Notes: generated from the letters alone by a model not told the origin. A DNA stretch of 64,000 nt from a virus (IMGVR_UViG_3300044846_001970:20511-84510); one strand, 5' to 3'. Counted from the first letter of the stretch, positions 1,210-18,953 are shown. A program made the numbers and translations.

Positions 1210-4200
1210 TTATTTTAAGTATTCTATTTTACCTCCGGCAGCTTCAATTTCTTTAATCTGTTTAAGAGTAAGTGTATATACTCTTCCTTTTTGATATTGT
1301 TTATTAGGTGTACCACCCATTTTAGTCACAACATTATTACCATCAAAACCAATATTCTGAATATTTTTACCATATTGATTGTACCAACCTTTATCTCCCA
1401 TTTGAGAACCAGCAATTTCTGCAGAACCAAATCCTGATTGTCCAGTATTAGGACTAGCTGCATCAGAAGATCTATTTTGTTCTCTAAATGCTTCATCCTG
1501 TTTAGCTTGACTCCAAGAATTAGCTCCCTTAGTAACTATATCAGTAAGACTTCCTTTACCAAATAAATCTGCACCCATTTGTTTAGGATCAAAGGTATAT
1601 GCATTTTGTGTAATAGTTCTACCAACAAAATTTGGATCATTAAATTCTGGTTGATCAACAGTAATACCATTTTTTGCTTCTTGTAGGTAACCACCATATT
1701 CTAAGAACTGTGCATAAGATGGAACAAAACCACCTTGTTGTCTTCTTATTACACCAAATTGATTTACAGGAGGTCCTGAAGGATTCTGTAAGCCATTGTT
1801 TTGTAAAAAAGGATTACCTAATCCTGGATTAGATAAACTAGTTCCTTGTGCATTACCTGCAGGTTGTTGTGGTTGACTAGTTCCTTGAGTAGAAGATGAT
1901 GGTTGATAAGTTGTATTTGTTGCTCCTACAACAGGAACTCCTGGATTTCCAACAGCTAAATTAGGATCAGCTGGTTTACCAGGAGCATTCATATTTACTT
2001 GAGGATTTACTGCAGGAGAACTTGGATTTAAAACATCAGGTTCATTAGCATTATCATCTGGACTACTTGGACCATCAGCATAATCTTCTGGAAATGCAGC
2101 TCTTCCTCTAGCTTCATCTGCAGCTGCTTTTTTTTCACCTTTAGCAATTTTTCTTTGAGTACTCTTTTTAAAAGAAGAATAATCTCCAGAATTTGTTCCA
2201 CTGGAGTTAGTTGCATTAGCACCAGGTGCACCATCAGTTCCATTAGTACCAGGAGTTGTTCCAGGAGCACCATCTGCACTTGCAGGATCTTTAGCAGGAT
2301 CTTTAGAAGGATCAGCATACCAATCAGTAACTCTTTTATTATCAAATGGATTCCATTTATTACCTCTATCTTTATAAGTTTCTTGTCTCATATGTTCTGT
2401 TCCTTCAGGAACATTCCAGTTAGGAGAAAAACCTTGTGTATAACTAAAGTCTTTTGAAAAACCAAAACCAAGTTTTTTTGGAGGACCAAACTGCATATTA
2501 CCTTGTTGTCCTTGTTGTGATTTTTGATATTGTAAAAATTGTTCTATTTGTTGTGGAGTAAATTGTTGTTGTCCAGGAGCAGTAGTATTGGTATTGGTAG
2601 TTGTAGTTGTTGTAGTAGGGGCTGGTTGTTTTGTATTAGAACTAGGAATATTGCTAAAAGCATTTGAGCTATTAGCACCAATTAAATTTTCATTTGGTAC
2701 TCCTTGTGTATTTCCTTTAGCAAATGGATTAGTTAATTCAGCACTTAATTCTGGTTTAAATTTTGAAGAACCATCTATATTAAATTTATTTTTAGCCCAT
2801 CTATCAAAACCTCCACCAGGACCAAAACTTTGAATACCTCCACCATAAGCATATTCATCTCCACCATATATAAACTTTAATAATTCAGGATTATTAGGAT
2901 CTATCATAGATTGATCAACATATCCTCCATCATCCATATATCTTCCAACTTGCATACCGTATGCTGCCATAGGATCTACATCCATATCATCTGTATAGGG
3001 AACTTGTGAAGGATCTATAGGATCTATGGTGCCATCATTACTAGGATCTTGAGGAATAAATTTATTTAAATTTTGTTGTTTTTGATTTTGGTAAGACCCA
3101 GGGATCATTGAGGCATAAGGATTAGCAAAAGGATTTGTTAATAAACTTTCTGCACTAGGAAGACTTACCTCTGGTACAACAGGTAAACCATCTGGACCAA
3201 TACATTGATCAGAAGAAGCATCATATACAGCTCCTGGAGGACAATTTAATCCTTTTTTATTAGAAGATAAATGACCTTGTGTTGCACTTGAACTTTTTGT
3301 ATTTCCAGCAACTTCATCTAAGGCTTTATTATTAACACTTGTAATAACTTTTTGTCTAACTTGTGATGGATAAGAAACTGATTTCCAACTTCCTCTATTC
3401 ATTCCAGACATCATTCCTGGCATCATTCCATATGCTCCAGGTAAAAGATTCACAAGATTTCCTAAAGCTTTTACATCCCAATCAGCTGTAGCTTTTCTTA
3501 TACCACCTAATGGTCCAAATTCATAACTAGTATTAACACCTGGTATTGAATGAGGTGTTCCAAATAAAGCTCTGTTAGCTCTTCTTATCCGGCCTCCACG
3601 GCCATATTCATTTTTCATAATAGTTGTATTTAATGCATTTTCATCCATTTTTGACATAGTGTGCTGTAATGCTTCTCCATAACCATGAAGTTCATCAATC
3701 CAATCATGAGGCTCTTGAGCTCCACCATTTGCTTTTGTATTCATATTTTGATAGGACTCTTCAGCTTGTTTTTTCATCATTGCCTCATTACCCATTTGTT
3801 TTACAGTACTTGCAAACATTTTATTTTGTTTTGTATTATTACCCATTGGGTCACCAATACTTCCTGCTGGAGGTAAATAAAATTCACTGTTTTCTACTTC
3901 TTCTCCTTCTGCAGCTTTTCTAAGTTTTTTTATATAATCATTAATATATTTACTTTTACTTTGTTTACTTCCTCCAAAAGCAAAAGATGCTGGTACAGCA
4001 TTAGCATCCATTCCTACAAAGTAAGGTTGTTTAGCTTCAGGAATAACATTATCATTCATATACTGTCCACCTTCTGCATACTCTGCATCTTCATAACCAT
4101 CATCTTCATTAGCAAGTTCACTTCCCAAATTATTACTTTCATAGTAACCATACGTTTCACTATCAGGTATTTCTTCTACAGCTTCTACTTCTTCTACTTT

Positions 4201-4497
4201 TTTATTATAAGGAGCTTCTTTATCATATGGAGCAGTTTGTGAAGATGAGTTATAGTTATCTAATTCTTGAAGTGTATCATACATTTCATATACAGTATCT
4301 TCAATTTTTTCTCTAGGTATTTTAAAATCTACTAATGCAGAAATAACTTCTTCTGGAGAAGTTCCATTACTTAATTCAGAATCAATGTATGCATCAATAG
4401 TATCTGATTGTCCACCCGCTTTCTTAACAAACTTATTAAGCTTGCTAATAAATCTTGGAGTTTCTCCAGGTTGTGCTTTACGTATTTTTACTTTCAT
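1210..4497 (-). CDS. Large low-complexity virion cargo/ejection-type protein with many xxxGG motifs
   Basis: 1095 aa, P/G/N/Q-rich, ~12 xxxGG motifs; located downstream of the tail stabilization gene, where crAss-like cargo genes lie. Confidence 0.65.
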   Translation of the reverse strand: MKVKIRKAQPGETPRFISKLNKFVKKAGGQSDTIDAYIDSELSNGTSPEEVISALVDFKIPREKIEDTVYEMYDTLQELDNYNSSSQTAPYDKEAPYNKKVEEVEAVEEIPDSETYGYYESNNLGSELANEDDGYEDAEYAEGGQYMNDNVIPEAKQPYFVGMDANAVPASFAFGGSKQSKSKYINDYIKKLRKAAEGEEVENSEFYLPPAGSIGDPMGNNTKQNKMFASTVKQMGNEAMMKKQAEESYQNMNTKANGGAQEPHDWIDELHGYGEALQHTMSKMDENALNTTIMKNEYGRGGRIRRANRALFGTPHSIPGVNTSYEFGPLGGIRKATADWDVKALGNLVNLLPGAYGMMPGMMSGMNRGSWKSVSYPSQVRQKVITSVNNKALDEVAGNTKSSSATQGHLSSNKKGLNCPPGAVYDASSDQCIGPDGLPVVPEVSLPSAESLLTNPFANPYASMIPGSYQNQKQQNLNKFIPQDPSNDGTIDPIDPSQVPYTDDMDVDPMAAYGMQVGRYMDDGGYVDQSMIDPNNPELLKFIYGGDEYAYGGGIQSFGPGGGFDRWAKNKFNIDGSSKFKPELSAELTNPFAKGNTQGVPNENLIGANSSNAFSNIPSSNTKQPAPTTTTTTTNTNTTAPGQQQFTPQQIEQFLQYQKSQQGQQGNMQFGPPKKLGFGFSKDFSYTQGFSPNWNVPEGTEHMRQETYKDRGNKWNPFDNKRVTDWYADPSKDPAKDPASADGAPGTTPGTNGTDGAPGANATNSSGTNSGDYSSFKKSTQRKIAKGEKKAAADEARGRAAFPEDYADGPSSPDDNANEPDVLNPSSPAVNPQVNMNAPGKPADPNLAVGNPGVPVVGATNTTYQPSSSTQGTSQPQQPAGNAQGTSLSNPGLGNPFLQNNGLQNPSGPPVNQFGVIRRQQGGFVPSYAQFLEYGGYLQEAKNGITVDQPEFNDPNFVGRTITQNAYTFDPKQMGADLFGKGSLTDIVTKGANSWSQAKQDEAFREQNRSSDAASPNTGQSGFGSAEIAGSQMGDKGWYNQYGKNIQNIGFDGNNVVTKMGGTPNKQYQKGRVYTLTLKQIKEIEAAGGKIEYLK

Positions 4498-4557
4498 AAT
4501 AATATATATATTAAATATACTAAATTTTAATTTAGTATTTAAACTAAATAAGTTTAC

Positions 4558-7500
4558 TTATTTAAAACCTTTTTCTTTCATATACTTTAGAATACGTTGA
4601 TATTCTTTTGCAGTAACATCAGGTTTTCTATCTGGAGAAATCATTTGATGTGATATAACATCTTTTAAAGATAAATTATATTTTGTAGCAATAGGACTAT
4701 AATATTCTATAAAAGATTTTATTTGAGCTTCTGTTAAAGGAGTATTTACTGTATTACCTTGAAACTCAACACCAATACTAAAATCATTTACATCTTTTCT
4801 TCCATTCCATTCAGACTCTCCAGCATGGAAAGTTACTTGTTCAGGTGAAGCATATACTGTTCTTTTACCATCTTCTTCAATAACAACATGAGATGAACTT
4901 TTTCCTGGTGTCATATATTGAGTTCTAACTTGACCCTCATTATTTTTAACATCTTCATAAGCAGTATGATGTAATACAATATTTTTTACTTCATTTTTTA
5001 ATTTATGACCTTTTTTATAACTTGCATCATTTTTAGTTCTAAGGTTAGGCATGTCAAGTACATACTCTTCTTCATACTCATTAACAGGAGTTTTATAATT
5101 CATTATATATAAACCATTTCCTCCAGATGAATTTTCATTGTCATATGCTTTTAATCTGTCTGCAGTAAGTTTTTTATCATCATAAGATAATCCTCTTGAA
5201 TATGTTCCATTATCTAAAGTCCAAGCTTCAAGATATTGATTAGTTCCTTTTAATTTTTTAAATTCTTTTTTTATAGTTGATAAACTTCCAGATACTAAAT
5301 ATTGTTGTTTAGTTACAGGGTTAACAAAAAGAATTCTTCCTCCTTGAATTGAACCATAATAATCATCTTTATCTTTACCTTTTGTTAAAATATTTAAAGA
5401 ACCATCTTTTATTTTACCATTCTCAAGTACTTTTACTTTAGGTTGTTTGTATCCAGGATTACCTGATTTAGAACCATCTACATATAAATCTTCAATATCT
5501 ATAATCTTATTCATATAAGTTTGACTAAACTTCCAGTCTTTGTTATTTTTAAAATCTTTAAATTGTCCAGTATGTAAATTACCATCAGCATCTAAAGCAA
5601 ATACACTTGTATTATCTGTTATATTTTTTAATTTATCAGAATTTGTGAATGGATGGAAAGTTGTAAGTTCTAAACCTTCAGATTCAATATCATTATAATC
5701 TCCTCTATTTCTATAACCTAATTTTATATTTGATATAGGTAAGACTTGTTGTTTATAATTTCTATTACTATTAGGTATAGTAAATGATTGTTGAGTACTA
5801 TTTAAATTTTTATAATACTCACTTATGCCTAATGGATTATCATTTTCTTTTAATTCAGGTACTTTAATATCATCATCATCTATAAGCCCATAAGTTTTAC
5901 TTTTACGAATTATACCTTGACTAACATATTCTATGTACTCACCTATAGATTCTTTAGTATCTTTTATAAATTCACCTGTGTCTTCAATTGTTTCTTTAAA
6001 AGGATAATTTGTTTGAAAATCAGACATCTTAGGTGTAATAGGTTTTATTTCTTTTCCATTAGCATCATAAGATTTTTTATTAAAATCTTGTTTACTAAAT
6101 TGAGCTGCCATAGAATTAGGAATAGGCTCTACTTTATTTATTGGTTCTGGTTTTAATAAAGCTTTTTGTTGGGCAATAGTAGTTAACCTATTAAATAAAT
6201 CTTTTTCAAAATTTTCATTAATATTTTCTTTTGCTTTAGTTTTACCTTGTGTAAATGCTTGATCTATATATTTTTTTATATTACTAGGAGAAACAATTTT
6301 TGGTTCTTCAAAAGTAGTTATTCCAAATTTACTTAATATATCTTTTGGTGTTTCAACCTTTACTTCTTTTTGTGCTATACCAGGTCTTTGTAAATTTTTT
6401 ATAAAAGTAGCTACATCAATTTTTGGTGCAACAATAGGATCTTTTGCTTTAGGTTTAGGAGTTAGTATTGGTTTAGCATTTTCTATTTGTTTAGGAAATA
6501 CCTTAGAAAAAGGAATTCCTTTTGGAGCTATAGTTGCTGCATACTTTTTAAGATCTTCTTTAACAACAGTTTCTATTTTCTTTTCTATTTGCTTTGGGAA
6601 TACTTTAGGTAGAGGAATTCCTTTTGGCTTACTTTGTGCAGCATACTTACTAAGGTCTTCTTTAATAGGAGTACTTAACTCTGAAAACATATTTGTTAAA
6701 CCTTCTTTAGTACCTATACGTTTAGCAACTAAGTCTTCAAGAGTAGCACCTTTACTAATCATTCTGCTTACCATATTTTTGTATGCTTCATGATTAAAAG
6801 TTTCTTTTCTATTAGGTATTTTAGCTTCTCCAAATTCTCCTTCTAATATTTTTTTTCTTAAACTCATATTAGATTCAAAACTACCATCTGTTAAACCTTG
6901 TTTTTTAGCTTCAGACCATGGTGTACCAGTATATTGTTGCCAAAGTTGAGATACTGTTCCTCCATCAGCTTCTTTAGATAATTCATTATTATGTATTTCT
7001 TCTACTACATATCCTTCAGCAATAAGTTTTTGAATTTCTGATTTAGAAATATTTGTTTCTATTGCCCCACCTTCTTTTTTAAGTTTACCAACTCTTTGTG
7101 CTAATTTAGAAAATACTATTGGAGCTCCAGTATTTATAGTTTTACTTGTTCCATCTGCTTTTCTAATTATATTAAATCCATCTCCTGATTCTACAGAATT
7201 TTCAAATGAAAATAATGATCTTGCTCCAGCTAAGAATGGATATAATGTTGGATCACTATACTTTGTAAATGGTAATATATTAGATGCACCTTTTATTAAA
7301 TTAAATGTTCCACCTCCTATATCTCCTTGAGAATAATCAACTAAAGCATTTGGTATATGTTTAGTTCCTGTATTATACACACCATAACCTCCTAATAAAT
7401 TATTAGCATTAAGTCCTGGTAAAGCTTTAATAGGTTCATACTTTAAATAAGGAGATGCTTTTTTAGATACCTTCATTATAGTTCTAGGCACCAATCCAAA

Positions 7501-10500
7501 AAAGGCATCTGCTGGACCAGCTAAAGTTTTTGCTGCTAATGCTGATCCTCTAAGTCCTGATGCTACTTCTGCTGCTGGTAATATAATATTTAAAGGATTT
7601 GCTAATGTAGCTTGATCATAACTAACATTAGATTTTAATTCTCCACTTAATATACCAGGAGATTCTTGATAATTTCCTCCAGAAGCAGTAGATAAATCTA
7701 CTACAGAATTCATAATACCCGCTCCTAAAGCATCTACACCTGATAATGTTTCAAGAGCACCTGTAGAACTATTATGTATAGCATCATATTCTTTTTTAGT
7801 AAAGTGTTTACGAAGAGCTTTTGAATCTATATAATCTTTATTATAATCACCTAATAAAGCTGGAACACCTGTTGCTTTAATTAAAAAATTACCAAGTTCT
7901 TGTGCTCCAGCAGCAGTTTTAGCCCAAAGAGATGGTTTTAATTTAGATCCATATTTTGAGTTTGCTGCCATATCATAACTTACAGCTCCTTTATCTGCTA
8001 ATTTTTCAACTAACTCAGCATGATTATTTGGATTAATTCCATTATCTTTAGCAAATTTTTCAATTACTGCACTGTTCTTGTCATATTCCCAATTTTTGTT
8101 ATAATTACTTTCTACTTTTTCTGGAAAGTTATCTTGACTAAGTCCAGCCAATCTATTTAAACCTTTATGTTTATTAAGATATTCAGCCTTTTTTTGATAT
8201 ACATAAGCATCTCTAGGATGAGCTTCTTCATAAGCAGTTGTATATGGTGAGTATTGATTAGTATTTACTTGTCGTATATCTTGTACTCTTTCTGTAAGAG
8301 CCATTGGACTTACACACTCTCCTGTTACAGGATCTCTTTGAAATCCTTGTGGACAAGGTTCTCCACCATCATCCATATGATTTAATGAAGGTACAGAAAT
8401 GTCTTCTATAACATAACCTCCTTTTCTATATTCTTCTATTTCTTCTGGAGATAAGTCAGCTATTATTCCACCATCTTCATAATCTTTTCTTCTGTGTAAA
8501 TAAGGAGTTGAAAAAGTATGTTTCTTTTTACCATTAAATAAAGGACCTAAAGGAAAATGTTTATTTAATCTTGGTGTAGTAAAAGAATGCCATTTTTTAT
8601 CCCATTCCCAATCTGATCCTTTAAGTTCTTCTGGATAGTCTTGTGTACCCATAGATTCTATTAAAGGACTTTCTTGTTTATTTATTACTGGTTCTACAGT
8701 AGGTACTATTACTTCTTCTTTAACAGGATCTATTATTTTAACAGGATCTATTACTTCTTCTTTAATGGGTTCAATTGGTATAACAGGTTCTTCTTCTTTA
8801 TTATAACCTAATAAATAATTTGATGGTTTTGCATAGACTGGATAAAAATGTCCACCACCAGGATGTCCTTTAAAACCTATTGGTTTAACTGAAGATTTAG
8901 CCATCATTTTTTTCCATTCACCAAATGAAACCATTGGTTCATTTATAAATGGAATACCATCTTGAGGTGGCATTAATTTTCCAGTACCATATGACATCCA
9001 CGGATCCCATCCAGTTCTAGGTATAGACTCAAAAGTTTTATAAAATTTATCTTTAGCTGATATAGTTCCATATTTTTTAAGTCTAGCAGCCTCATAAGTA
9101 TTATGATTGTTAACTCTAGTAATATATTGATTATATAATTTTTGTTGTTCTTTTTTTGTTATATTTGATTTTGCTAATTCTGCCTCACTATATACTATTT
9201 TTGTATTTTTAGGAATAATTTTACATTCAGTTCCTGTCCAGTATTGTCCTTCGGGACAACCACCTTCCATAGGAGAAAAAATTATTTTTTGTTCAGAAGC
9301 TCCACCTTTCTTTGCATGTATTAATCCTTGACCACCACACTTATGACAAGTAGTAATATCATCACCACCATCTGCAGCATCCCATTCCCAACCACATTTT
9401 TTACATGTTACTTTCTTGGTAAGTAAAGCACCACCTTTAGCAGCTACTTTAATTTCTTCTTCTCCTTCATTATTTTTAGAAATATTTTGAAGCATCCAAA
9501 GAATTTCCTCATCTGTAAATTGTTTTCTAAGATCTTTAATTGGTTTCATTGGTTGCCAATTATCATCACTTCTTTTTTTATTTATATAATTTTGAAATAT
9601 TTCTGGAGTAATTTGTTCTGTAAATGGATCATAAATACCTTCTTTTTTAGCAAGTTGTCTAATTTCTCCTAGTCTTGCTCTAACTTCAGTTGGTTGAGAA
9701 ATATAGTCATGACCTATAGTCTTCCATTCTTTTTGGTTAGAGTCAGAAGATATTTTATGATTTGTTTGAATTATATTTTTTAAATTTTCAAATTGTTTTT
9801 GAAAATCTTTGTCATCTTCAGTAAAACCTTGAGAATATAATATTTGTTTTATTTCTTCATCAGTTTGCATACTATAAGCTTCAGGCCATTTTTCTACTCT
9901 AGATTTATAGTCTTGATTATCTTTCCAATTAGAACCTCTATTTCTAGTAATATACAATTGATCAGATTCAGGCATTACTCTTTCACTAGATTCTTCCTTA
10001 TCATTTGGAAATCTTGGATCTTTAGAATTTATAAAATCCCAATTATATATTCCTTTTGGTCTATCAGATGTATGAAAATATTCATGTGTGTACATAGAAG
10101 GTCCATACTCAAAACCTTCAGGATACACTTTTACCTCTCCTGTTAAACTATTTGAAGTTGCTGCGGGGTTAAAACCATGAGAACTAATAGTTGACGTAGC
10201 CATAATATTTATCGGAGGTATATCAGCAATATTTTCTTTTCTAAGTTTTGTAACATAATCTGCACCTAGTTGATTACCATCAAAACTATTAAGAACCATT
10301 TGATTATACATAGGTGAGTCATGCCAACCCTTAACAAAGTCTAATCCTTCATCAGCATATTTAGGTTCATTTACTAAAGCTTTTTTATAAGCTTCATTTT
10401 TTTCTATATCCTCAAAATATTTTTTTTCTGTAATTTTTTCTTTTTTTCTAATAGCTTTTGTTTCTTCATCAGGTTCAGAAATTAATTTTTTATCAATAGT

Positions 10501-10878
10501 ACTTAATGGAATTAAACTCATGTTTACTGGATCATAACCATACTTTCCACTATATAAATAATGTTTTATTTGATCATTATATTTAAGACTTATTTTATCA
10601 GGATCAGCAGAATGCATTGCCCAATTTGCAACTCCATCTATAAGTTTTTGATCAGTAGCATATGTTATAAGTCTTGTACATTTTTCACCATCCCAATATT
10701 CCCCATCTTTACATTTATTTTTTTCTCCACCTTTATCAAATCTATATTTAGCTTTAGGATTATATACTCCAGGTGCTTTCTTTTTTCTTTTTCTAAAAAG
10801 TGGACTTTTTTTAAATAGTCTATTTGTAGCAAACAAATTGCTATTACCTTTTTCACCACCTGCTTTATAATTTTCCAT
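4558..10878 (-). CDS. Multidomain virion protein: zincin-like HExxH peptidase, Zn-ribbon, Cys mini-modules, C-terminal N-acetylmuramoyl-L-alanine amidase
   Basis: THEYFH plus YISQPTEVRAR; CKKC..CHKC; C-terminal IVLHHT...SSHVVI...FHAGES...SIGVEF...SHQMISPDRKPD amidase_2 signature. Confidence 0.75.
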   Translation of the reverse strand: MENYKAGGEKGNSNLFATNRLFKKSPLFRKRKKKAPGVYNPKAKYRFDKGGEKNKCKDGEYWDGEKCTRLITYATDQKLIDGVANWAMHSADPDKISLKYNDQIKHYLYSGKYGYDPVNMSLIPLSTIDKKLISEPDEETKAIRKKEKITEKKYFEDIEKNEAYKKALVNEPKYADEGLDFVKGWHDSPMYNQMVLNSFDGNQLGADYVTKLRKENIADIPPINIMATSTISSHGFNPAATSNSLTGEVKVYPEGFEYGPSMYTHEYFHTSDRPKGIYNWDFINSKDPRFPNDKEESSERVMPESDQLYITRNRGSNWKDNQDYKSRVEKWPEAYSMQTDEEIKQILYSQGFTEDDKDFQKQFENLKNIIQTNHKISSDSNQKEWKTIGHDYISQPTEVRARLGEIRQLAKKEGIYDPFTEQITPEIFQNYINKKRSDDNWQPMKPIKDLRKQFTDEEILWMLQNISKNNEGEEEIKVAAKGGALLTKKVTCKKCGWEWDAADGGDDITTCHKCGGQGLIHAKKGGASEQKIIFSPMEGGCPEGQYWTGTECKIIPKNTKIVYSEAELAKSNITKKEQQKLYNQYITRVNNHNTYEAARLKKYGTISAKDKFYKTFESIPRTGWDPWMSYGTGKLMPPQDGIPFINEPMVSFGEWKKMMAKSSVKPIGFKGHPGGGHFYPVYAKPSNYLLGYNKEEEPVIPIEPIKEEVIDPVKIIDPVKEEVIVPTVEPVINKQESPLIESMGTQDYPEELKGSDWEWDKKWHSFTTPRLNKHFPLGPLFNGKKKHTFSTPYLHRRKDYEDGGIIADLSPEEIEEYRKGGYVIEDISVPSLNHMDDGGEPCPQGFQRDPVTGECVSPMALTERVQDIRQVNTNQYSPYTTAYEEAHPRDAYVYQKKAEYLNKHKGLNRLAGLSQDNFPEKVESNYNKNWEYDKNSAVIEKFAKDNGINPNNHAELVEKLADKGAVSYDMAANSKYGSKLKPSLWAKTAAGAQELGNFLIKATGVPALLGDYNKDYIDSKALRKHFTKKEYDAIHNSSTGALETLSGVDALGAGIMNSVVDLSTASGGNYQESPGILSGELKSNVSYDQATLANPLNIILPAAEVASGLRGSALAAKTLAGPADAFFGLVPRTIMKVSKKASPYLKYEPIKALPGLNANNLLGGYGVYNTGTKHIPNALVDYSQGDIGGGTFNLIKGASNILPFTKYSDPTLYPFLAGARSLFSFENSVESGDGFNIIRKADGTSKTINTGAPIVFSKLAQRVGKLKKEGGAIETNISKSEIQKLIAEGYVVEEIHNNELSKEADGGTVSQLWQQYTGTPWSEAKKQGLTDGSFESNMSLRKKILEGEFGEAKIPNRKETFNHEAYKNMVSRMISKGATLEDLVAKRIGTKEGLTNMFSELSTPIKEDLSKYAAQSKPKGIPLPKVFPKQIEKKIETVVKEDLKKYAATIAPKGIPFSKVFPKQIENAKPILTPKPKAKDPIVAPKIDVATFIKNLQRPGIAQKEVKVETPKDILSKFGITTFEEPKIVSPSNIKKYIDQAFTQGKTKAKENINENFEKDLFNRLTTIAQQKALLKPEPINKVEPIPNSMAAQFSKQDFNKKSYDANGKEIKPITPKMSDFQTNYPFKETIEDTGEFIKDTKESIGEYIEYVSQGIIRKSKTYGLIDDDDIKVPELKENDNPLGISEYYKNLNSTQQSFTIPNSNRNYKQQVLPISNIKLGYRNRGDYNDIESEGLELTTFHPFTNSDKLKNITDNTSVFALDADGNLHTGQFKDFKNNKDWKFSQTYMNKIIDIEDLYVDGSKSGNPGYKQPKVKVLENGKIKDGSLNILTKGKDKDDYYGSIQGGRILFVNPVTKQQYLVSGSLSTIKKEFKKLKGTNQYLEAWTLDNGTYSRGLSYDDKKLTADRLKAYDNENSSGGNGLYIMNYKTPVNEYEEEYVLDMPNLRTKNDASYKKGHKLKNEVKNIVLHHTAYEDVKNNEGQVRTQYMTPGKSSSHVVIEEDGKRTVYASPEQVTFHAGESEWNGRKDVNDFSIGVEFQGNTVNTPLTEAQIKSFIEYYSPIATKYNLSLKDVISHQMISPDRKPDVTAKEYQRILKYMKEKGFK

Positions 10879-13800
10879 TATCTAGGGGAGTATTGATTTT
10901 TAGTATTGTATAATTTTAAGATCATATTTGTATCATATGAATCTGTTTTAATTAAATACATTAGATTAACCATTTGTCTAAACTTCTTTCTTTGCATCTG
11001 AGGTTTACTATAATCTACTGCAAGAGGGTTAATAGATTTCTTATAACCATTTGATTCAGTAATCCATAATTTATCTTGAGGATAATTTCCTAATAACACT
11101 GTAGTACCTGGAATAAGTTGTCCTGTTGGAGGATAACCTGAACCTACTGGAAACTCTCCTCTATCTTTAGTTATATCCCAGAATTGGTTTATTCTATATT
11201 TACTTTCTTCTTTAGAGAATAATATATCAAAGGATTGCCCTGAAGTATTTAATTTAGGATAATCTAATGATAAAGTTATATTGTTCTTAGGAAAAATATT
11301 TAAGTTTAAATAACCAGAAATTTGCTCTGTATTATAAACAACTAGTTTATCAAAATTATAATCTAATACATTAAACTGATCTACACAATAGTTATTATCT
11401 CTTCTGTAACATTCAAGAACATATTCCATTGATCTAAGAGTTGTTACAGTTTGTCCTGTGCTTACAGGAAATTCTATTTCAAATGGATATTGTACACCAT
11501 AAAAATTACAATATGTAATACAATCAAAATTATGTTTATATAAACCATTATTATGTGTACTTACAAAACTTGCTTTTGATGGTATAGTTAAGTCAGGATG
11601 CCAGTCATGAAAGCTAATCCAAAATTTACTTTTAGGATCATAACTTACTGTAAATGAAGCATCTTCAAAAATCATTGGATCTCCTAATGGTAAGTAAAGT
11701 GGTGATGTAGGATTACCTGCTGAATCTGTTGGTGTATATTGGAAAGAACTATTTCTACCATCATTTATATAAATAACTTTGCCATCTAATAAATTACCTT
11801 GACTATCAAACTTTTTAAGTTTATAATCTTTTTTACAAAAATATAGTACTGAATTATAGTTATCATAAATTGCTTGAGTACCTACACCAGAAACAGGATT
11901 ATCTAAATAAGGATATTCAGGAAAGTCTTCTGTTAATTTACATGGTAAGAATTCATCAAACCACCATTTCATACCAGCTTGATTTATTTCTTGTAAACCT
12001 TCTCCATAAGTAAATACTTTACCTTGATCTTGTGATATATAATAAAGACCAGCAGGAGTTGATATTACAGATAATTTTCCTTGACAAGAACCATACATAT
12101 ATGGAGTATCTGCCACAACAATATTTTGTGCTTCTTTTGAAAACAAACCTCCATCACCAATAATAACTTTTGTTCCTGAGCCATCCATTTCTAATGTATC
12201 AACTCCTTGGAATACTTGAGGACTATCATTTTTAAATGTTAAAAAAGCTCCTGTTTTAGCAAATGTCTTAACTGAACTAACTTGACTAATAAACTTTTTT
12301 CTATTAAATGGTAAAAATATAAACCAGTTATCTGTAGGAGCATCATCTGAAATACCTAATGAATAAGTAATAACATTTGGTAAATAAGTATAACATAGTT
12401 GAGAAACTAATGGATCATAGTATGTACTTTGTAAAAAACCAAAAGATGTAAATCTATTTGTTAATCTAACAATGCTTAATGAAAAATCATAAATATAAAA
12501 GTTACCTTCTGTAGCTGTTAGTTTATCCATTCTAAATAATGTATTTAGATCTGTAAACATATAAGGTTGGTAACACTTTTCAAAATCAAATGTACCTACT
12601 TCTCTAAAGTCAAGTAATACATCTGATTCTACTACAAAGTCCCTTACTCCTGATGCAGAAAGATAAAAATAAGAATCTTTAGCAAATGTAAATCCTGGAT
12701 AAGGACTTGGATCATCATTAGTTCTATTATAATTTTTACTATCTAAATTAAAATAATCATTTGGAAAAAATCCATAACCTGTTGTGTTACCTTGAATTAG
12801 GTTAGACCATGCAGTAAAATTTGTAACTTGTAATTCTGCTACACTATACTTTTCACTGTTTGCCCAATATCTTGGCTCAGGAATCATTTGATTATTAAAA
12901 TAATTATAAGGATATCCATTAGGATCTCCATATAACCAATCATAAAAAAAGAACATTGGATTCTTTTCTGTAAATCTAGTTACATAAGTATCTCCATTAA
13001 ATAACTCTATAGTATTTTGAATTACTCTTTTATTATATGCTATTGTAACTACTGTACCATTTGGTTGTGTAACAGTAACATTAAAATCTTGAGATGGTAA
13101 AACAGGTATGTTTTGTTCACAAGGAGTAATAGGTAATTGTATAATTGAATTTAATTGTCCATACTGATCATCTAAGTCTACTTTGATTGCAGCATAGTGA
13201 CTTGCTATTGGAACACTAAATTCAATACTCTTTTCCCTTTCATTAATTTTTGGACCAAAATTATTACCTATATTAGGTAGCTCATCATCAAACATTCCAA
13301 GACTTCCTAATGATAAATCTTGTCCAGTTAAAAATTTAGGACCATCTGTTTGATTATTGTTTGCAGTTTCTGTTCTTAATACAAGTAACTTAGGTCTCTT
13401 ATAATTATTAATTGTATAACTATCAATATTACCTGTTACAGTATTTGTATAATTTTTAATTTCTTGAGATGTATTTGTAAACATATAAATACCATCAGCA
13501 ACTTTAAATCTTTTTGTGTCAGTATTAGAAGGTGTAGTATATACATCATATAGACCATGTCCTAAAAGTTGTAAAGCTTGTTGTCTATATGTACCTACAG
13601 CATACATTAAATCTACTGCAGCTTGAGCACCTTCTTGAAAATAATATGCTAATTGTGATAAGTCACCCCCAAAATTAATTAAAACATTAACCCATGATGG
13701 TAACATTTGCATACCTGTTAATTCTGCAGTATAACTTTGTGGAGTTAAATTACCACCAGCATTTAATATACTAGTATTATTAGTTTGATAAATATTACCT

Positions 13801-16289
13801 AATAACTCTGTTCCAGCAAATGCATCTAATAAAGATCCACCACCACTTCCATAACCTGCTATAGCTGACTCAAAAGCACTTTCAATACCACTAACTACAC
13901 CTGCAGCAATAGAATTTGTTTGTATACCTACTGTTGAATTACCTGCAGCTGCTGCAAATGTCCATTGTAAACCATATTGTGATGTAAAACCTCCAGAAGG
14001 ATAATTAATTTGTTTTTTACCACCAGACTTTAATAACACATCTATTAAACCAGCTACTAGTATTAAAAATAAAGCATCACTAGTCATTAACTTAAACTTA
14101 GGATGACCTTGTGGTTCAATAAATTGTTGTCTTGCTTGACCAGATAAATGGCCATACATCTTTAATTCATTTGTAGCAAGATAAGGATTTCTAAAACTTA
14201 CATCAGGTGAATGAAAACTAATAATGTTTTTTGGCATACTAACATTAACAACATCATTATTCTGCTTGGTTGATTTTATAAAAGGATCATTATATTGATA
14301 GTTATGGTGAGCAGGATTTGTACTATTTCCTAATGGGATAATAGTATTATAAGGATAGTTAGCATATAATCCTTTTCTAGTATTTGCAGGTACACCTTGT
14401 CTTCTGTAATCTCTAAAGTTATTTATCATACCTTTAGCAATAACAGTTTTATTTCCTTCTCTAGATCCTCTTAAAATTTCATAACCTACAAGTCCAGGAA
14501 TATCAATACCATTATTATCTTTTGGGATCATAATGTTATTAAACTTTACTCCCATTATTCTTATAAATAAAGCTCCTGTAGTAACATCTTTTCTAAAATG
14601 ATTAGAACCAGTAGCTGTACTTACTAAACCAGAAACATTATCATAAATTAAATTTTCAGGAAACTTATGATGTCTAATTGGTGTGCCACATAAATCATAA
14701 TTAAGACTTGGCACATTATATACACCACTCCATTGATGATAACTTGCATTATAAATATCTGGTCTATTATCTGGATATATTTCACTAGACTGCCAGTAAC
14801 CCATATCTCCAGTACCAATAACTACACCTCCATCAGATAATACTGTATTAGGTGAAGGAAAGTTTTGAGTAGCTGTATTTATAGTTTCAAATAAAAGAAT
14901 ATCTCCTGGAAAACTATTTGCATCAGAATAACTTCCATTTTCAAATTGATTTGGATTTGGTCCCCATTGTCTTGGTCCTCTTCCTGGTATATGATAAGAT
15001 GCTGTTTTATCTCCTGTATTATAGACCCATCTAATAAAGAAAGAATAAACTTCATCTCTCATGTAGTTTGTTTTACTACCTCCTTTAAAATAATAATCAG
15101 ATGGATATTCAACAGCAACCCATTCTGATGTAATTAAATTTGCTAATGGTTGATAATTAAAATCAAACTTAGATGTTGGTCCTATTCTTAATAAAAAATT
15201 ATTAAGTTGTGTCATTTGATCTGACTTTTCAAATATAGGTTGTATTATTCCTATAAGAGATACAGGAACACTTTCAAGACTAGGAGCATAAGCATCTATT
15301 GCAATTCTACTTGTTCTAGTTGAATAGTATCCAATTTCTCTTCCTATGGTATTCTCATTAATATTTGCTACTAAAACAAAAACAAATTCATCAAAGTTAT
15401 CTGAATCTGCAGTAACATTAAGAACTAAAGATCCCTGTGCTCCATTAACAGTATATACAGGTTGAACATTACTTGGTGCAAAATAATCAGTTACCTTTTC
15501 TCCTTTTATAGTATATGCTATTACTGCATAGTAACTACCATTTTCTAATGCTCCTGATCCATTTCCAATTTCTAAATTAAGACATGGTGTTTGCATTAAT
15601 CTTGCTAATCTTGTTGCATCACAATCTAAAGTATTAAGATCAACACAAATATTACAAGAACTAACTACACTACAGAATTGATCCCATTGAACTCCAGGCC
15701 ATAAAATTTTTGTAGCTGGGTCTAATATGTTAATATAATAATTTACATTAGCTCCTGGTCCAGCCCAAATATATTCAGAAAGTGAAGGCCATAGTTGTGA
15801 ATCTCCAATATTTAAATATCTATCTGGATTAAGTCCATCAGCCCAATATGCTTGCCATGAACAATCTTGTAATTGTCTTGTTGCTCCAGAGATAAGATTA
15901 GTTTTACTAAAACCTAAACACTTATCTTGAACAATTGGTCTATAGATACAACTCTCTTCATCAAATATACCAATCTCTGACATAGCAGACATAATAGATA
16001 TATCTGTAATATGTGCTGCTGTAAAGATGAGCCACTTATCACTAAACAAATGTATGGTGCCTATTATATATTTATAAGGAGCTACTATTGTTGCTCCTGC
16101 TGTTGCACATAATACATTTGCTGATTCATTAGATATAGTTCCAACATCTCCTTCAGAAGTATTGTTTACTGCATTTCTAGCATGAGTCCACATTCCTTCT
16201 CCAAGAAAACCTTGATCAGAATCTTTATTAAGACCTTTAATAAAAGTAGATAACTTATCTAATCCGCTACTTGCTTCTTCTTTTGCCAT
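10878..16289 (-). CDS. Tail stabilization / muzzle protein (P22 gp10-like, crAss-like)
   Basis: 1803 aa; F.KGLNKD...ARNAVN start, YMRDEVYSF, PIRHHKFP, WISFHDW motifs; position after tail tubular gene. Confidence 0.8.
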   Translation of the reverse strand: MAKEEASSGLDKLSTFIKGLNKDSDQGFLGEGMWTHARNAVNNTSEGDVGTISNESANVLCATAGATIVAPYKYIIGTIHLFSDKWLIFTAAHITDISIMSAMSEIGIFDEESCIYRPIVQDKCLGFSKTNLISGATRQLQDCSWQAYWADGLNPDRYLNIGDSQLWPSLSEYIWAGPGANVNYYINILDPATKILWPGVQWDQFCSVVSSCNICVDLNTLDCDATRLARLMQTPCLNLEIGNGSGALENGSYYAVIAYTIKGEKVTDYFAPSNVQPVYTVNGAQGSLVLNVTADSDNFDEFVFVLVANINENTIGREIGYYSTRTSRIAIDAYAPSLESVPVSLIGIIQPIFEKSDQMTQLNNFLLRIGPTSKFDFNYQPLANLITSEWVAVEYPSDYYFKGGSKTNYMRDEVYSFFIRWVYNTGDKTASYHIPGRGPRQWGPNPNQFENGSYSDANSFPGDILLFETINTATQNFPSPNTVLSDGGVVIGTGDMGYWQSSEIYPDNRPDIYNASYHQWSGVYNVPSLNYDLCGTPIRHHKFPENLIYDNVSGLVSTATGSNHFRKDVTTGALFIRIMGVKFNNIMIPKDNNGIDIPGLVGYEILRGSREGNKTVIAKGMINNFRDYRRQGVPANTRKGLYANYPYNTIIPLGNSTNPAHHNYQYNDPFIKSTKQNNDVVNVSMPKNIISFHSPDVSFRNPYLATNELKMYGHLSGQARQQFIEPQGHPKFKLMTSDALFLILVAGLIDVLLKSGGKKQINYPSGGFTSQYGLQWTFAAAAGNSTVGIQTNSIAAGVVSGIESAFESAIAGYGSGGGSLLDAFAGTELLGNIYQTNNTSILNAGGNLTPQSYTAELTGMQMLPSWVNVLINFGGDLSQLAYYFQEGAQAAVDLMYAVGTYRQQALQLLGHGLYDVYTTPSNTDTKRFKVADGIYMFTNTSQEIKNYTNTVTGNIDSYTINNYKRPKLLVLRTETANNNQTDGPKFLTGQDLSLGSLGMFDDELPNIGNNFGPKINEREKSIEFSVPIASHYAAIKVDLDDQYGQLNSIIQLPITPCEQNIPVLPSQDFNVTVTQPNGTVVTIAYNKRVIQNTIELFNGDTYVTRFTEKNPMFFFYDWLYGDPNGYPYNYFNNQMIPEPRYWANSEKYSVAELQVTNFTAWSNLIQGNTTGYGFFPNDYFNLDSKNYNRTNDDPSPYPGFTFAKDSYFYLSASGVRDFVVESDVLLDFREVGTFDFEKCYQPYMFTDLNTLFRMDKLTATEGNFYIYDFSLSIVRLTNRFTSFGFLQSTYYDPLVSQLCYTYLPNVITYSLGISDDAPTDNWFIFLPFNRKKFISQVSSVKTFAKTGAFLTFKNDSPQVFQGVDTLEMDGSGTKVIIGDGGLFSKEAQNIVVADTPYMYGSCQGKLSVISTPAGLYYISQDQGKVFTYGEGLQEINQAGMKWWFDEFLPCKLTEDFPEYPYLDNPVSGVGTQAIYDNYNSVLYFCKKDYKLKKFDSQGNLLDGKVIYINDGRNSSFQYTPTDSAGNPTSPLYLPLGDPMIFEDASFTVSYDPKSKFWISFHDWHPDLTIPSKASFVSTHNNGLYKHNFDCITYCNFYGVQYPFEIEFPVSTGQTVTTLRSMEYVLECYRRDNNYCVDQFNVLDYNFDKLVVYNTEQISGYLNLNIFPKNNITLSLDYPKLNTSGQSFDILFSKEESKYRINQFWDITKDRGEFPVGSGYPPTGQLIPGTTVLLGNYPQDKLWITESNGYKKSINPLAVDYSKPQMQRKKFRQMVNLMYLIKTDSYDTNMILKLYNTKNQYSPR

Positions 16290-17344
16290 TATATAACTCT
16301 TGTTGCATTAGGATTTGGTCTGTATGTATTTGCTGGTCTATTAGAATTAAACATATCATAATACTTAGAATACTGTGCTCTTCTATTAGTCCACCATAAT
16401 TTTTCCATTTCTTTAAAGTTAGGAGTATTTACTAAACTTAAAGCATTATTTCTAGCAGACTTAACTCTTTGTTCTACTAACTGCATTCTTTGTGATACAT
16501 CTTCTCCATTTAAATAAAGATTTTCAAGTATTCTTTGTTTAAATGAATACTCATAATATTCATTAAGAAGATCATGATCTGGAACTAATAACTGTCCATC
16601 ATCTGTCTCCATTTGACCTTGATAATTTAAATAAACTTTTCCTGTTTCAAAAGTAGTAAATAAAAAACCACCTTGTATCCAACCTTCATTATTAGTATTC
16701 TGATATAAGTTAGGGCAATTACAATCAATACCTTGACTTTGTCTCATCCTTAAAGGTAAAAGACTTTTGTATGTTCTTGTTTGAGATGAATTGACTACTT
16801 GAATAAGTTCCCATTTTTCTCCTTTACAGTTCATAAAAACTCTTGGTCTAATACAAGTATCCCCATAAGGACTTAAAGGGTCATAGGATGTAGGTATAGT
16901 AGGTGTAGGGCAAGTAGTATCACAACTGTTATTCATGCAAGCTGCTGTATGATTACATGGATTTGCATTACATACTGCACAGTTTACAGTTATAGGAGCA
17001 CACACATCTACATTAGCAGGTACTTCTACATAAGGAACTTCTTGCATATTAGTACCACCAGTCATTCCACCATAACCAACACTTACTGTATAGTCATTAC
17101 AAATGAAGGCATAATTAAAAGTATAAAAATCATCAGGTAATTTTACTCTACCATGAGTTACATCTAGTATAACTTCTTTAGTTTGATTAATTCTTAAACC
17201 TAAATCATAGTTTATTTTTTTAGCTAATTTGATAAGTTGTTGAGGCTCTATCATATTCTCTAAAGCAAATGTGTTTAGATCAATAGTAACATCTTCCAGC
17301 AACTGGTCAAATGTTCTATATTTAAGTGTATAATTAAAATCCAT
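16289..17344 (-). CDS. Tail tubular/ring protein (crAss-like)
   Basis: GRVKLPDDF...G.LFTTFETGKVYLNY.G...DG..LVPD motif; directly upstream of the stabilization protein. Confidence 0.7.
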   Translation of the reverse strand: MDFNYTLKYRTFDQLLEDVTIDLNTFALENMIEPQQLIKLAKKINYDLGLRINQTKEVILDVTHGRVKLPDDFYTFNYAFICNDYTVSVGYGGMTGGTNMQEVPYVEVPANVDVCAPITVNCAVCNANPCNHTAACMNNSCDTTCPTPTIPTSYDPLSPYGDTCIRPRVFMNCKGEKWELIQVVNSSQTRTYKSLLPLRMRQSQGIDCNCPNLYQNTNNEGWIQGGFLFTTFETGKVYLNYQGQMETDDGQLLVPDHDLLNEYYEYSFKQRILENLYLNGEDVSQRMQLVEQRVKSARNNALSLVNTPNFKEMEKLWWTNRRAQYSKYYDMFNSNRPANTYRPNPNATRVI

Positions 17345-18003
17345 TATCTAAGAGTATTTTGACTATCATCAGCACCATCTGTTGGTATTGACATAGACAT
17401 AGTTAATTCTTTAATTACCATTTGTTCTACTTCAGAAAATAAATACTCTGGAATATTATAACTTTCATTTTGTCTAGTCATACAATCTTCTTCACAAATT
17501 TCTACTTTGTTTTCAAAAATAGCTTCCATCCTTATTGCTTCCCAATCTATATTAGGACAATAGATATATCCATTTAAATACCAAAAGTATCTTCTTGTAT
17601 TGTATTTGAAAGTTGTTGATTTTGTAATAGACACCCAAGTCCCTGGTTCTGTTCTAAACATTTCTATAGAACCATCTATAGAAGATGTAGTACGTATAAT
17701 AGGACCAAACATACCATCTAGTATACTTGGTAATTTATCTTTTGATCTTTTAAAATAACATTCAGAATAAACTCCAACACATCCAGCTTCTACTTTATCT
17801 ACATCTATTAGTTCTATATAAGGTAGAACTTGAAAGATCTGACTCATCTTCATTAACCTGAATTGATTGTCTTCTCTTTTAATTAAAGTCTTTGCATATT
17901 TTTGTATTGCAAAATAAATAGTTCTATCTGTTAAGAAAGGATCTTCCTTAACTGCCTTTAGAACATTTCTAACTCTTGATATGGCTTCTCCAATTGTTGT
18001 CAT
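17344..18003 (-). CDS. Putative tail ring/structural protein
   Basis: 219 aa, YFWYLNGYIY, C-terminal P.DGADDS; crAss-like gene order. Confidence 0.6.
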   Translation of the reverse strand: MTTIGEAISRVRNVLKAVKEDPFLTDRTIYFAIQKYAKTLIKREDNQFRLMKMSQIFQVLPYIELIDVDKVEAGCVGVYSECYFKRSKDKLPSILDGMFGPIIRTTSSIDGSIEMFRTEPGTWVSITKSTTFKYNTRRYFWYLNGYIYCPNIDWEAIRMEAIFENKVEICEEDCMTRQNESYNIPEYLFSEVEQMVIKELTMSMSIPTDGADDSQNTLR

Positions 18004-18581: not shown

Positions 18582-18638
18582 ACTATACTATTTAATATAC
18601 TAAAAATAAATGACTTTAGCAAATATAGGTATAAAAAC

Positions 18639-18665
18639 AAAACCTCCCACAAGTGTGAGAGGTCT
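18639..18665 (-). terminator. Putative intrinsic terminator
   Basis: Imperfect hairpin acctcccac/gtgtgagaggt with A-run on plus side, downstream of the 78-aa ORF. Confidence 0.4.
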
Positions 18666-18705
18666 GTCTGTTGTTACAGAAACCAACAACTGCAACTTTA
18701 TTTTT

Positions 18706-18942: not shown

Positions 18943-18953
18943 AATTTAAATTA

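Follow-up and report, generated by a model that had tools for sequence, protein, structure and literature searches.

Polyvalent proteins combine unrelated enzymatic domains in one polypeptide, with a zincin-like metallopeptidase as a common hub, and their delivery together with the DNA has been proposed (Iyer et al., 2017, PMC5512222). Domains attacking the cell wall and ADP-ribosyltransferase (ART) domains are typical of them, and in one phage type an Asp residue lies three residues after the HExxH motif (PMC5512222). In the genome record of phage crAss001, the genes of a ring protein (gp43), the muzzle protein (gp44), and the cargo proteins C1 (gp45) and C2 (gp46) follow one another, and the paper describing the crAss001 structure also mentions the ejection proteins of T7 (Bayfield et al., 2023, PMC10172136). 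Here we analyzed a stretch of 64,000 nucleotides (nt) of a virus (IMGVR_UViG_3300044846_001970:20511-84510; hereafter the window), which is part of an 84.5-kb virus record with an estimated completeness of 71%, with a focus on P0001, the 2106-amino-acid (aa) protein of the open reading frame (ORF) at 4558..10878 on the minus strand. The P0001 locus follows the muzzle gene, varies in length and content among related genomes and retains a few conserved connector peptides, at which modules are turned over, and the fold and catalytic residues of three modules were predicted. We propose, with a probability of roughly 0.7, that P0001 occupies the first cargo position in an environmental crAss-like phage and is a 'polyvalent' protein organized as beads on a string, which is packed in the virion and injected.

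The ORF of P0001 is uninterrupted and starts one base before the stop-codon end of a gene encoding a 1803-aa protein, which resembles the muzzle protein of crAss001, gp44, weakly but in a collinear manner (best E-value of 2e-4). The gene order in the window is thus ring protein 2, ring protein 1, the muzzle homologue and P0001, and we place P0001 at the C1 position because this order matches gp43-gp44-gp45 of crAss001. Related loci were collected by scanning IMG/VR with an alignment of a conserved peptide, motif A (see below). The scan yielded 133 confirmed stretches, the best 80 of which were kept and represent 77 distinct loci, or 78 together with locus L001. The family gene lies directly after the muzzle homologue in 71 of the 78 loci, and the remaining 7 loci begin at or inside the family gene. 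The gene after the muzzle encodes 183-2789 aa, typically with one internal and one C-terminal motif A, and the gene set of a single locus sums to up to 3247 aa, beside ring proteins that are 79-86% identical.

P0001 contains ten [KDE]GG sites, of which the first G is at aa 50, 482, 504, 525, 539, 803, 820, 838, 1270, and 1306 (AAKGG at 9430-9444 and AKKGG at 9301-9315 of the window being two of them). The protein has 20 GG dipeptides against 11.3 in shuffled sequences, a count reached by 7 of 1000 shuffles, and 11 [KDENQ]GG against 4.0 (reached by 1 of 1000). The enrichment by itself is a modest signal, and the strong evidence is comparative. The ten cysteines form a CxxC..CxxC arrangement (aa 492, 495, 511, and 514) and three pairs (56/67, 541/552, and 842/855), each of the latter sitting directly after a GG. 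The ORF, the HEYFH motif, the Zn ribbon, the GG motifs, and the amidase named in the original prediction, which had been made from the DNA alone, were all recovered in place, and the elements it had called Cys knots turned out to be single Cys pairs (CxxGx(5-8)C).

A search space of 5.8 billion proteins provided 75 relatives of 1165-3098 aa, the full-length ones being of 2117-2121 aa. According to BLASTP, the 75 relatives share segments with P0001 that are arranged differently and repeated a different number of times. We examined 320 internal ends of the BLASTP alignments with 74 relatives, excluding the ends due to protein termini and the near-identical P0002, and 49.4% of them fell no more than 6 aa from one of the ten [KDE]GG sites. 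Sets of ten sites chosen at random captured 6.0% of the ends on average and 33% at maximum, and the observed value was reached in 0 of 5000 trials; the contrast of 49.4% with 6.0% is not to be read as a probability, because the relatives are not independent of each other. P0002, a full-length relative sharing 73% identity with P0001, lacks exactly aa 481-523, the missing residues being the Zn ribbon, beginning at one KGG and reaching to the next, and a 12-nt direct repeat containing one mismatch, AAAGGTGG(T/A)GCT, was found at the two ends of this segment. Furthermore, the IMG/VR contig behind L001 is 97.3-98.8% identical to the window at the DNA level over 19 kb, except for positions 7103-8361 (aa 840-1258), in which BLASTN detected no similarity. 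This region is a replaced cassette, of which the left edge is the GG of MDDGG and the right edge lies 7 aa before the second copy of motif A, and the protein identity between P0001 and L001 changes along the chain from about 100% to about 20% and back to about 100%.

The same tendency was seen across the family. We compared 152 distinct family proteins pairwise, requiring flanks of at least 88% identity, and found 13 non-redundant large replacements or indels. Among their 26 breakpoints, 19 were within 5 aa of a GG (random breakpoints: 2.4 on average and 8 at maximum, with 19 reached in 0 of 5000 trials), and the other 7 were 6-262 aa away from the nearest GG. The GG dipeptides at aa 1846 and 1919, which the original prediction had not listed, are conserved residues inside a fold similar to those of NAGPA and DUF2233 proteins and not borders. 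Altogether, comparing the sequences of the relatives, we regard the [KDE]GG sites as real module borders, where modules are swapped, added, and deleted. The reason why borders and GG coincide is that short, conserved elements of three kinds, with GG at their edges, lie between the modules. It had been predicted that domain boundaries fall on the GG motifs and that the modules are 'plug-and-play', with a comparison of orthologues at the GG junctions as a check; the alignment ends, the loss of the ribbon in P0002, the L001 cassette, and the breakpoints all bear this out, as gain, loss, and replacement of modules do map to GG junctions (P0002, L001, and 19 of the 26 breakpoints). As a separate observation, the Pro/Lys-rich linker of P0001 contains a 33-aa tandem duplication (aa 1408-1474, window 6457-6657; DLSKYAAQSKPKGIPLPKVFPKQIEKK.. 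and DLKKYAATIAPKGIPFSKVFPKQIENA..), of which L001 possesses one copy.

The three kinds of connectors, namely the Zn ribbon, the Cys pair, and motif A, start and finish in GG. The Zn ribbon (consensus KGGALLTKKVTCKKCGWKWDAADGGDDITTCHKCGGQGLVHAQKGG) was found in 26 of 76 family proteins and shares 79-87% identity with the P0001 copy where BLASTP aligned it, while the Cys pair, GGxxCPxGxx..GxC, follows many junctions. Motif A is an element of approximately 40 aa with the consensus ..GGxIELELTxEEIxxYxKGGYIVEE[IL] followed by 4-14 residues and DGG, and occurs 117 times in 68 of the 76 proteins. The GG following it is nearly invariant (G41 in at least 90% of the alignment rows). Of the 117 copies, 27 are the very C-terminus of a protein and end with ..GYIVEEI(D) and no trailing DGG. 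The '25-aa helix motif' of the original prediction is indeed present in two copies that belong to a single profile (aa 799-842 with an E-value of 8.5e-19 and aa 1268-1309 with an E-value of 3.2e-11), albeit they are better read as a C-terminal tag that became internal.

We then counted proteins bearing a motif-A-type tag in their last 13 residues. Such a tag was present in 45 of 55 distinct proteins at the first position after the muzzle gene (+1) and in 43 of 50 at the second (+2), and in none of 198 at four upstream positions. The usual +2 tag is ..MTEEELxxFLANGGEVEYL, and the 1095-aa protein at +2 in the window ends with ..LTLKQIKEIEAAGGKIEYLK. P0001 is an exception, its own C-terminus bearing no tag, and its second copy of motif A (aa 1266-1309) corresponds to the endpoint of relatives such as P0003. 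Thus, motif A can be regarded as the ancestral C-terminal tag of the cargo family, and aa 1310-2106 of P0001 as an appended extension. As motif A is the C-terminal tag of the family, its internal copies mark former gene ends, that is, places where modules were added or fused. In at least 10 loci, two family genes stand in tandem, the first gene ending with a variant tag, ..ELGDE[IV]DEATxxxLxKLGYTFExI, and the second beginning with MAKY[RK]I... We considered that the two-gene loci might be frameshifted single genes and rejected this idea, as the first genes have their own end tag and the second genes a conserved N-terminus. Conservation was also found at the other end of P0001: the leader (aa 1-51) is 96-98% identical in P0005 and P0006, of which the other modules are only 50-70% identical, and leader-type segments occur internally in other family members.

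The synonymous-codon identity between genomes was 0.606 for motif A and 0.590 for ring protein 2, and the DNA of motif A is thus not specially conserved. The proposal that the connectors are recombination signals at the DNA level is therefore unsupported. Either the similarity of the conserved peptides suffices for recombination at the connectors, or only the chimeras joined at domain borders survive, and the conservation of the connector peptides points to a function of the peptides themselves. The complex prediction of ring proteins 1 and 2 with motif A received a score of 0.00 in a run made with no controls, and is uninformative either way. In the coding sequence of P0001, 8 of the 10 [KDE]GG sites are encoded by GGTGG(T/A/G), and the GG dipeptides of the C-terminal half mostly by GGAGG.

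The region of aa 150-481 is supported as a zincin-fold metallopeptidase module with conserved catalytic residues. H265, E266, H269, D272, and E398 are invariant in the alignment of all 9 modules (from the window and seven loci), and in a wider alignment all rows spanning this position retain HExxH. In the AlphaFold model (mean predicted local distance difference test score, pLDDT, of 67.6; predicted template modelling score of 0.70), two short strands precede the helix that contains HEYFH (model residues 112-122), and a later helix (247-263) contains E398. An exhaustive structure aligner returned exclusively zinc metallopeptidases in rows 1-11 (Z-scores of 5.2-7.4) and mostly so in the later rows, the top matches being Zmp1 (7.4), neprilysin (7.3), PepO (7.2), and anthrax lethal factor (6.9). 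Each Z-score is middling, but the hits agree with one another and with the motif. Foldseek detected no match to the model at E-values of 0.001 or smaller, the top rows being M35 zinc peptidases with E-values of 0.22-0.85; the best match of the profile of this module among the sequences of PDB entries was not meaningful (E-value of 0.084), and no Pfam family, MPTase-PolyVal included, matched it at E-values of 1 or smaller. The peptidase that had been read from HEYFH is supported by the conserved residues and the structural matches. With the hidden Markov model (HMM) of the family, this module was detected in no more than 14 ORFs, which are distributed over 14 of the 78 loci.

At the C-terminal end, a NAGPA/DUF2233-like domain is followed by an amidase, and the two domains were modelled together (aa 1690-2106) with a mean pLDDT of 84.7. 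The only structures aligned to model residues 1-240 were 3ohg (DUF2233; Z-score of 6.1 with 175 residues aligned), 6ozd (5.5), 6pkg (NAGPA; 5.4), 5h3k (5.3), and 6u11 (NAGPA; 5.2), all of which are middling scores. An Atlas cluster in which 17% of the members carry PF09992 scored 0.89, and neither PF09992 nor another Pfam family matched aa 1556-1950 at E-values of 1 or smaller. The earlier guess of a phosphodiester glycosidase in the LDNGTYS region is thus backed at the level of the fold only (Z-scores of 5.2-6.1 to DUF2233 and NAGPA). A full HMMER scan of 1.84 billion representative proteins recovered the domain in 225 proteins at E-values of 0.001 or smaller. The domain is mobile, occupying varied positions in proteins of 188-6692 aa. 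Among 35 of these homologues scanned, 19 possess Amidase_2, which was C-terminal to the domain in the cases compared, 4 possess LysM, and none had PF09992 at E-values of 0.001 or smaller. The cassette also exists outside giant proteins, as two-domain proteins of 369-546 aa are known (P0094, P0148, and P0101).

The amidase itself was recognized by Amidase_2 (PF01510; aa 1962-2086, E-value of 5.5e-18, 66 bits against a cut-off of 26), and its fold was matched with Z-scores of up to 15.5 and, for AmpD, a Foldseek E-value of 2.2e-9. In the alignment with AmpD (E-value of 3e-11), E2038, H2077, K2085, and D2087 align with AmpD residues 116, 154, 162, and 164, and H1970 is matched with the His that is conserved within the LH[HY]T motif of AmpDh2. 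We take H34, E116, H154, K162, and D164 of AmpD to be the zinc ligands and catalytic residues, and the C-terminal amidase looks catalytically intact. A second amidase gene in the window, located at 42352..42999 beside a holin gene, also matched Amidase_2 (E-value of 3.2e-17), but the two amidases share only 26% identity over 88 aa, in agreement with the prediction of a complete Amidase_2 domain distinct from the lysis endolysin.

The rest of P0001 comprises modules with no recognizable family. For the six non-amidase segments of P0001 scanned against Pfam, nothing credible was found at E-values up to 1. Module M6 is the P0001 module found in the most related loci (22 loci), and its profile retrieved nothing meaningful among the PDB sequences (best E-value of 0.74). 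It contains a Gly/Ala-rich, moderately hydrophobic stretch at around aa 1040-1130, in which a classical transmembrane helix was ruled out, the maximum Kyte-Doolittle mean over 19 aa in the module being 1.23. The modules and connectors of P0001 and the neighboring genes are listed in Table 1.

Table 1. Features of P0001 and the adjacent genes in the window
Feature	Residues of P0001	Position in the window	Strand	Basis
Basic N-terminal leader to FDKGG	1-51	10726..10878	-	BLASTP
First Cys pair (CKDGEYWDGEKC) directly after GG	52-70	10669..10725	-	
Small module M1; elsewhere in relatives (e.g. P0004 aa 1590-1686)	71-149	10432..10668	-	
Predicted zincin-fold metallopeptidase module; HEYFH (aa 265-269) at 10072-10086	150-481	9436..10431	-	
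Zn-ribbon connector, KGG..CxxC..CxxCGG..KKGG	481-526	9301..9438	-	
MEGG and second Cys pair (CPEGQYWTGTEC)	527-556	9211..9300	-	
Module M4, belonging to no known family; shared with P0021, P0009, and L025	557-797	8488..9210	-	
Connector/tag motif A, copy 1 (YEDGG..LSPEEIEEYRKGGYVIEDI..MDDGG)	798-841	8356..8487	-	
Core module M6: third Cys pair, helical part, and Gly/Ala-rich stretch	842-1265	7084..8355	-	
Motif A, copy 2 (KKEGG..ISKSEIQKLIAEGYVVEEI..EADGG)	1266-1309	6952..7083	-	
Module M8 (WxxYTGTPWSEAKKQGLTDG helical part) and Pro/Lys-rich linker	1310-1555	6214..6951	-	
NAGPA/DUF2233-like fold containing LDNGTYS	1690-1930	5089..5811	-	
AmpD/AmiD-like N-acetylmuramoyl-L-alanine amidase	1951-2106	4561..5028	-	
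Upstream gene, 1803 aa, muzzle-protein homologue		10878..16289	-	Similarity to crAss001 gp44, conserved synteny
Tail ring protein 1 (CrAss_Ring_1, 16289-17344) and ring protein 2 (CrAss_Ring_2, 17344-18003)		16289..18003	-	Pfam
Gene downstream of P0001, encoding the protein at the second cargo position (1095 aa) with [FYM]xxGG motifs, a Cys pair of its own, and a related C-terminal tag ..LTLKQIKEIEAAGGKIEYLK		1210..4497	-	

The relatives carry modules of diverse kinds. Pfam searches at E-values of 1e-4 or smaller on 75 distinct family proteins from the loci (one further protein, from L079, was left out) detected SET in 11 proteins, SLT in 6, VanY in 4, Amidase_2, ART-PolyVal, DUF6782 (a putative metallopeptidase), and Phage_lysozyme2 in 3 each, and Phage_lysozyme in 2, while 49 of the 75 had no Pfam family at all. 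The SET lysine methyltransferase domain occupies the N-terminal approximately 160 residues in 10 of the 11 proteins (L029, L034, L042, L047, L050, L057, L060, L063, L073, and L074) and is internal in L035 (aa 493-571); in the precomputed list of relatives, it was found in 15 of 75 proteins, P0016-P0019 among them. SET enzymes injected by phages would deserve a separate study. The ART of the polyvalent-protein type (PF18760) was found in L050 (8552-12889; 50.1 bits against a cut-off of 31.2), L021, L022, P0016, and P0081. In P0017 (2904 aa), residues 1374-1447 weakly matched Intein_splicing (E-value of 3.6e-4, below the cut-off), and a self-cleaving module of the HINT type, as hinted there, would bear on the question of processing.

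By analogy with the cargo of crAss001, we infer that the virion contains P0001 and ejects it prior to the DNA. The ejection named in the original prediction fits the position after ring protein 2, ring protein 1, and the muzzle protein, as well as the virion proteins of phage phi4:1 annotated from tandem mass spectrometry (MS/MS) at the same place, and P0001 itself is probably a virion protein on these grounds. The chain would run from a basic N-terminal leader through the zincin module and the Gly/Ala-rich core module to a self-contained cell-wall cassette at the C-terminal end. Flexible GG joints may allow the small modules to unfold in turn, to move through the tail channel, and to regain their fold one by one. 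The amidase cassette would open the peptidoglycan locally, the zincin may act on the cargo or on host targets, and the other modules may act on host targets. P0001 would work mainly as one chain, and cleavage at the joints is conceivable but not needed for the data.

Several points weigh against this proposal. The presence of P0001 in the virion is by analogy only, drawn from the MS/MS note in the record of phi4:1 gp041. The comparison of P0001 with crAss001 gp45 by BLASTP gave a best E-value of 8.1, hhalign of the M6 profile a probability of 0.1%, and the motif-A HMM no match; as no similarity to gp45 was detected, 'C1' denotes no more than an analogy of position. The assignments of the zincin and NAGPA-like modules depend on middling Z-scores with no Pfam match at E-values of 1 or smaller, and the low mean pLDDT of the zincin model, just 67.6, counts on the same side. 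The location of the breakpoints at the domain borders may be due to the survival of viable chimeras alone and not to a property of the connectors. Motif A stands at essentially the same synonymous-codon identity as ring protein 2 (0.606 and 0.590). Finally, the amidase, being C-terminal, exits last if ejection proceeds from N to C, which fits an early opening of the wall poorly.

An alternative, raised in the original prediction, is a self-processing polyprotein, in which the zincin or a different protease of the phage would cleave in or beside the GG joints, either prior to packaging or once the protein is ejected, and the modules would come free as separate proteins. The zincin, of which the catalytic residues are invariant and which looks active, speaks for it, a cut after an internal motif A would recreate the natural C-terminus of the family, ..GYIVEEI, and the nearly invariant GG after motif A (G41 in at least 90% of rows) exceeds the need of a plain flexible linker. 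Autoproteolysis by such metallopeptidases has been proposed, with the processing of P1 DdrB cited, but the N4 virion RNA polymerase carrying such a domain is packaged unprocessed (Iyer et al., PMC5512222). Likewise, gp45 was modelled as one chain from the tail to the capsid, and 'cleav' and 'proteoly' do not occur in the main text of that paper (PMC10172136). What makes self-processing unlikely in our opinion is the distribution of the enzyme: phmmer found no zincin in 57 of the 65 distinct gene sets with internal motif-A junctions, even the family HMM found it in just 14 ORFs of 14 among the 78 loci, and no prohead-type protease was seen among the 27 ORFs of the window compared with PHROGs (the record being 71% complete). 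Motif A and the related tags may instead be docking or loading peptides, which bind the virion interior (the portal, the capsid, or the tail barrel) and set the order of loading and exit, the internal copies tethering the chain. The tag is conserved across hypervariable proteins (45 of 55 at +1 and 43 of 50 at +2 against 0 of 198 upstream), and the constraint is on the peptide, since the tag DNA is no more conserved than ring protein 2. In crAss001, residues 214-245 of gp45 are bound on the tail barrel and residues 425-552 on the portal (PMC10172136), and these segments lie between the GG motifs at 209-210/263-264 and 427-428/562-563. Against this, the binding partner is hypothetical, the motif-A profile has no match in crAss001 gp44-gp50, and P0001 itself ends with no tag. 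We consider docking a tentative possibility, which is compatible with the injected beads-on-a-string protein and adds a specific function of the tags to it.

Virion-associated wall hydrolases are often parts of the tail, and P0001 might be a structural component of this sort, such as a needle, a plug, or a tape-measure-like protein bearing wall hydrolases as in other podoviruses and siphoviruses. Its gene is within the tail gene block, and the phi4:1 record calls the analogous gp041 a 'tail protein'. Nevertheless, single ORFs ranging from 183 to 2789 aa (up to 3247 aa when summed) and the free turnover of cassettes misfit a fixed structure beside ring proteins of 79-86% identity, and the SET and ART modules of the relatives make sense only within a host cell, rendering a tail component quite improbable. 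Returning to the injected polyvalent protein that we favor, it may be extended by the speculation, rather doubtful at present, that the leader and the C-terminal tags (motif A and ..GGEVEYL) are signals of loading or ejection order that the virion interior reads, like the cargo-loading peptides of encapsulins, and that the GG-edged connectors are standard joints, with which any effector cassette plugged into the chain could still be packed, threaded through the tail, and refolded.

If this speculation is true, the locus is a natural slot for exchangeable payload, through which arbitrary enzymes enter Bacteroidota cells. The crAss001 structure raised the question of how crAss-like phages choose, pack, and eject several megadaltons of protein, and this locus offers a concrete handle on it: the length within the family varies more than tenfold, yet the same terminal tags and a few connector peptides recur and natural swaps of cassettes are visible. 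The tags are directly testable as packaging signals. The family would moreover be a catalogue of early injected effectors, including SET methyltransferases, ADP-ribosyltransferases, metallopeptidases, and five kinds of wall hydrolases, most of its modules being of no known family. Provided that foreign modules are tolerated in the payload slot, engineered phages of laboratory strains could be used for protein delivery.

The genes around P0001 are consistent with a crAss-like genome. Pfam assigned Crass_capsid, the crassvirus major capsid protein, to 31138-32754, and PHROGs the portal to 34142-36889 and the large terminase to 36895-39078. The 1095-aa protein of the gene downstream of P0001 matched neither Pfam nor PHROG families. 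It is likewise punctuated by GG, with 7 [FYWM]xxGG against 1.4 in shuffled sequences (a count attained in 1 of 1000), and also contains a poly-Thr/Asn stretch of low complexity, tracts rich in Pro, Gly, and Asn, and a Cys pair (NCPPGAVYDASSDQC). The third gene after the muzzle (L003-L079; in the window at 2-1204 on the minus strand, partial) encodes a conserved N-terminus, MKVRIKKVPQARTGYQVQGS.., and a conserved C-terminus, ..GGF[VI]YGD[IV]TYPF[IL]L, which suggests terminal signals on every cargo-position gene. Elsewhere in the window, a gene at 49715-50347 on the minus strand matches PHROG 3704 'ferredoxin' (E-value of 4.1e-66), a gene for a DUF5856 protein or 'starvation-inducible transcriptional regulator' lies within the structural block (26170-26622, minus strand), and a ParB-like gene is at 57776-58528 on the plus strand. 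Near 50 kb, the guanine-cytosine skew is reversed and the genes move from the minus to the plus strand, and it is probably here that the structural module gives way to the replication module.

Searches of a phage collection and of the literature returned little that resembles P0001. Megablast of window positions 4000-20000 found no match in a phage collection, and tblastn of P0001 against the same collection retrieved only amidase matches and one match of 26% identity in a crAss-like phage of the pig gut. In the open-access literature, no paper contains the strings of the connector and tag motifs, and none links the cargo of crAss-like phages with polyvalent proteins in its title or abstract. 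Among the known systems, T7 gp16 and similar proteins resemble P0001 in that they are internal virion proteins that are ejected and bear a domain degrading peptidoglycan during entry. The only such domain of T7 gp16 is an N-terminal transglycosylase, unlike P0001, of which the hydrolase is a C-terminal amidase cassette and one of many interchangeable modules. Closer in gene position is gp041 of Cellulophaga phage phi4:1 (NC_021788, L080, 20521-22740), which follows the muzzle-like gp042 and is a virion protein by MS/MS according to the record, where it is annotated only as 'tail protein'. It starts with a tail lysozyme (Phage_lysozyme2, E-value of 5.1e-32), to which two HExxH modules are joined on the C-terminal side (HEFTH at 384 and HELNH at 627), with KEGGE and QAGGE between the modules, and its residues 666-730 are weakly similar to aa 395-469 of the P0001 zincin module (pairwise E-value of 0.01). 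In contrast to P0001, gp041 is of 739 aa, the best domain E-value for the motif-A profile is 3.5, and the zincin family HMM does not detect it at E-values of 1 or smaller.

The cargo protein C1 of crAss001, gp45 (Bayfield et al., 2023, PMC10172136), shares with P0001 the gene position directly after the muzzle, a basic N-terminus, a Gly/Ala-rich hydrophobic stretch, and an enrichment in GG (21 against 13.3 in shuffled sequences, reached by 28 of 1000), and its ordered segments are bracketed by GG motifs. Unlike P0001, gp45 is of 842 aa, has no enzyme function in the record annotation, and shows neither detectable homology nor a match to motif A. As for polyvalent proteins, P0001 combines a predicted zincin fold, a NAGPA/DUF2233-like fold, and Amidase_2, which places it within their definition by at least two disparate activities; D272 corresponds to the Asp three residues after HExxH, and relatives carry ART-PolyVal above the Pfam cut-off. 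It differs from them in that its zincin matches neither MPTase-PolyVal nor another Pfam family at E-values of 1 or smaller. The main text of PMC5512222 contains neither 'crass' nor 'linker' (0 occurrences each), and the GG-edged connectors, the terminal tags, the crAss-type locus, and the exchange of cassettes between near-identical genomes are absent from the description given there. Altogether, polyvalent proteins as described in that text (Iyer et al., 2017) are the concept closest to P0001, which has the architecture that defines them.

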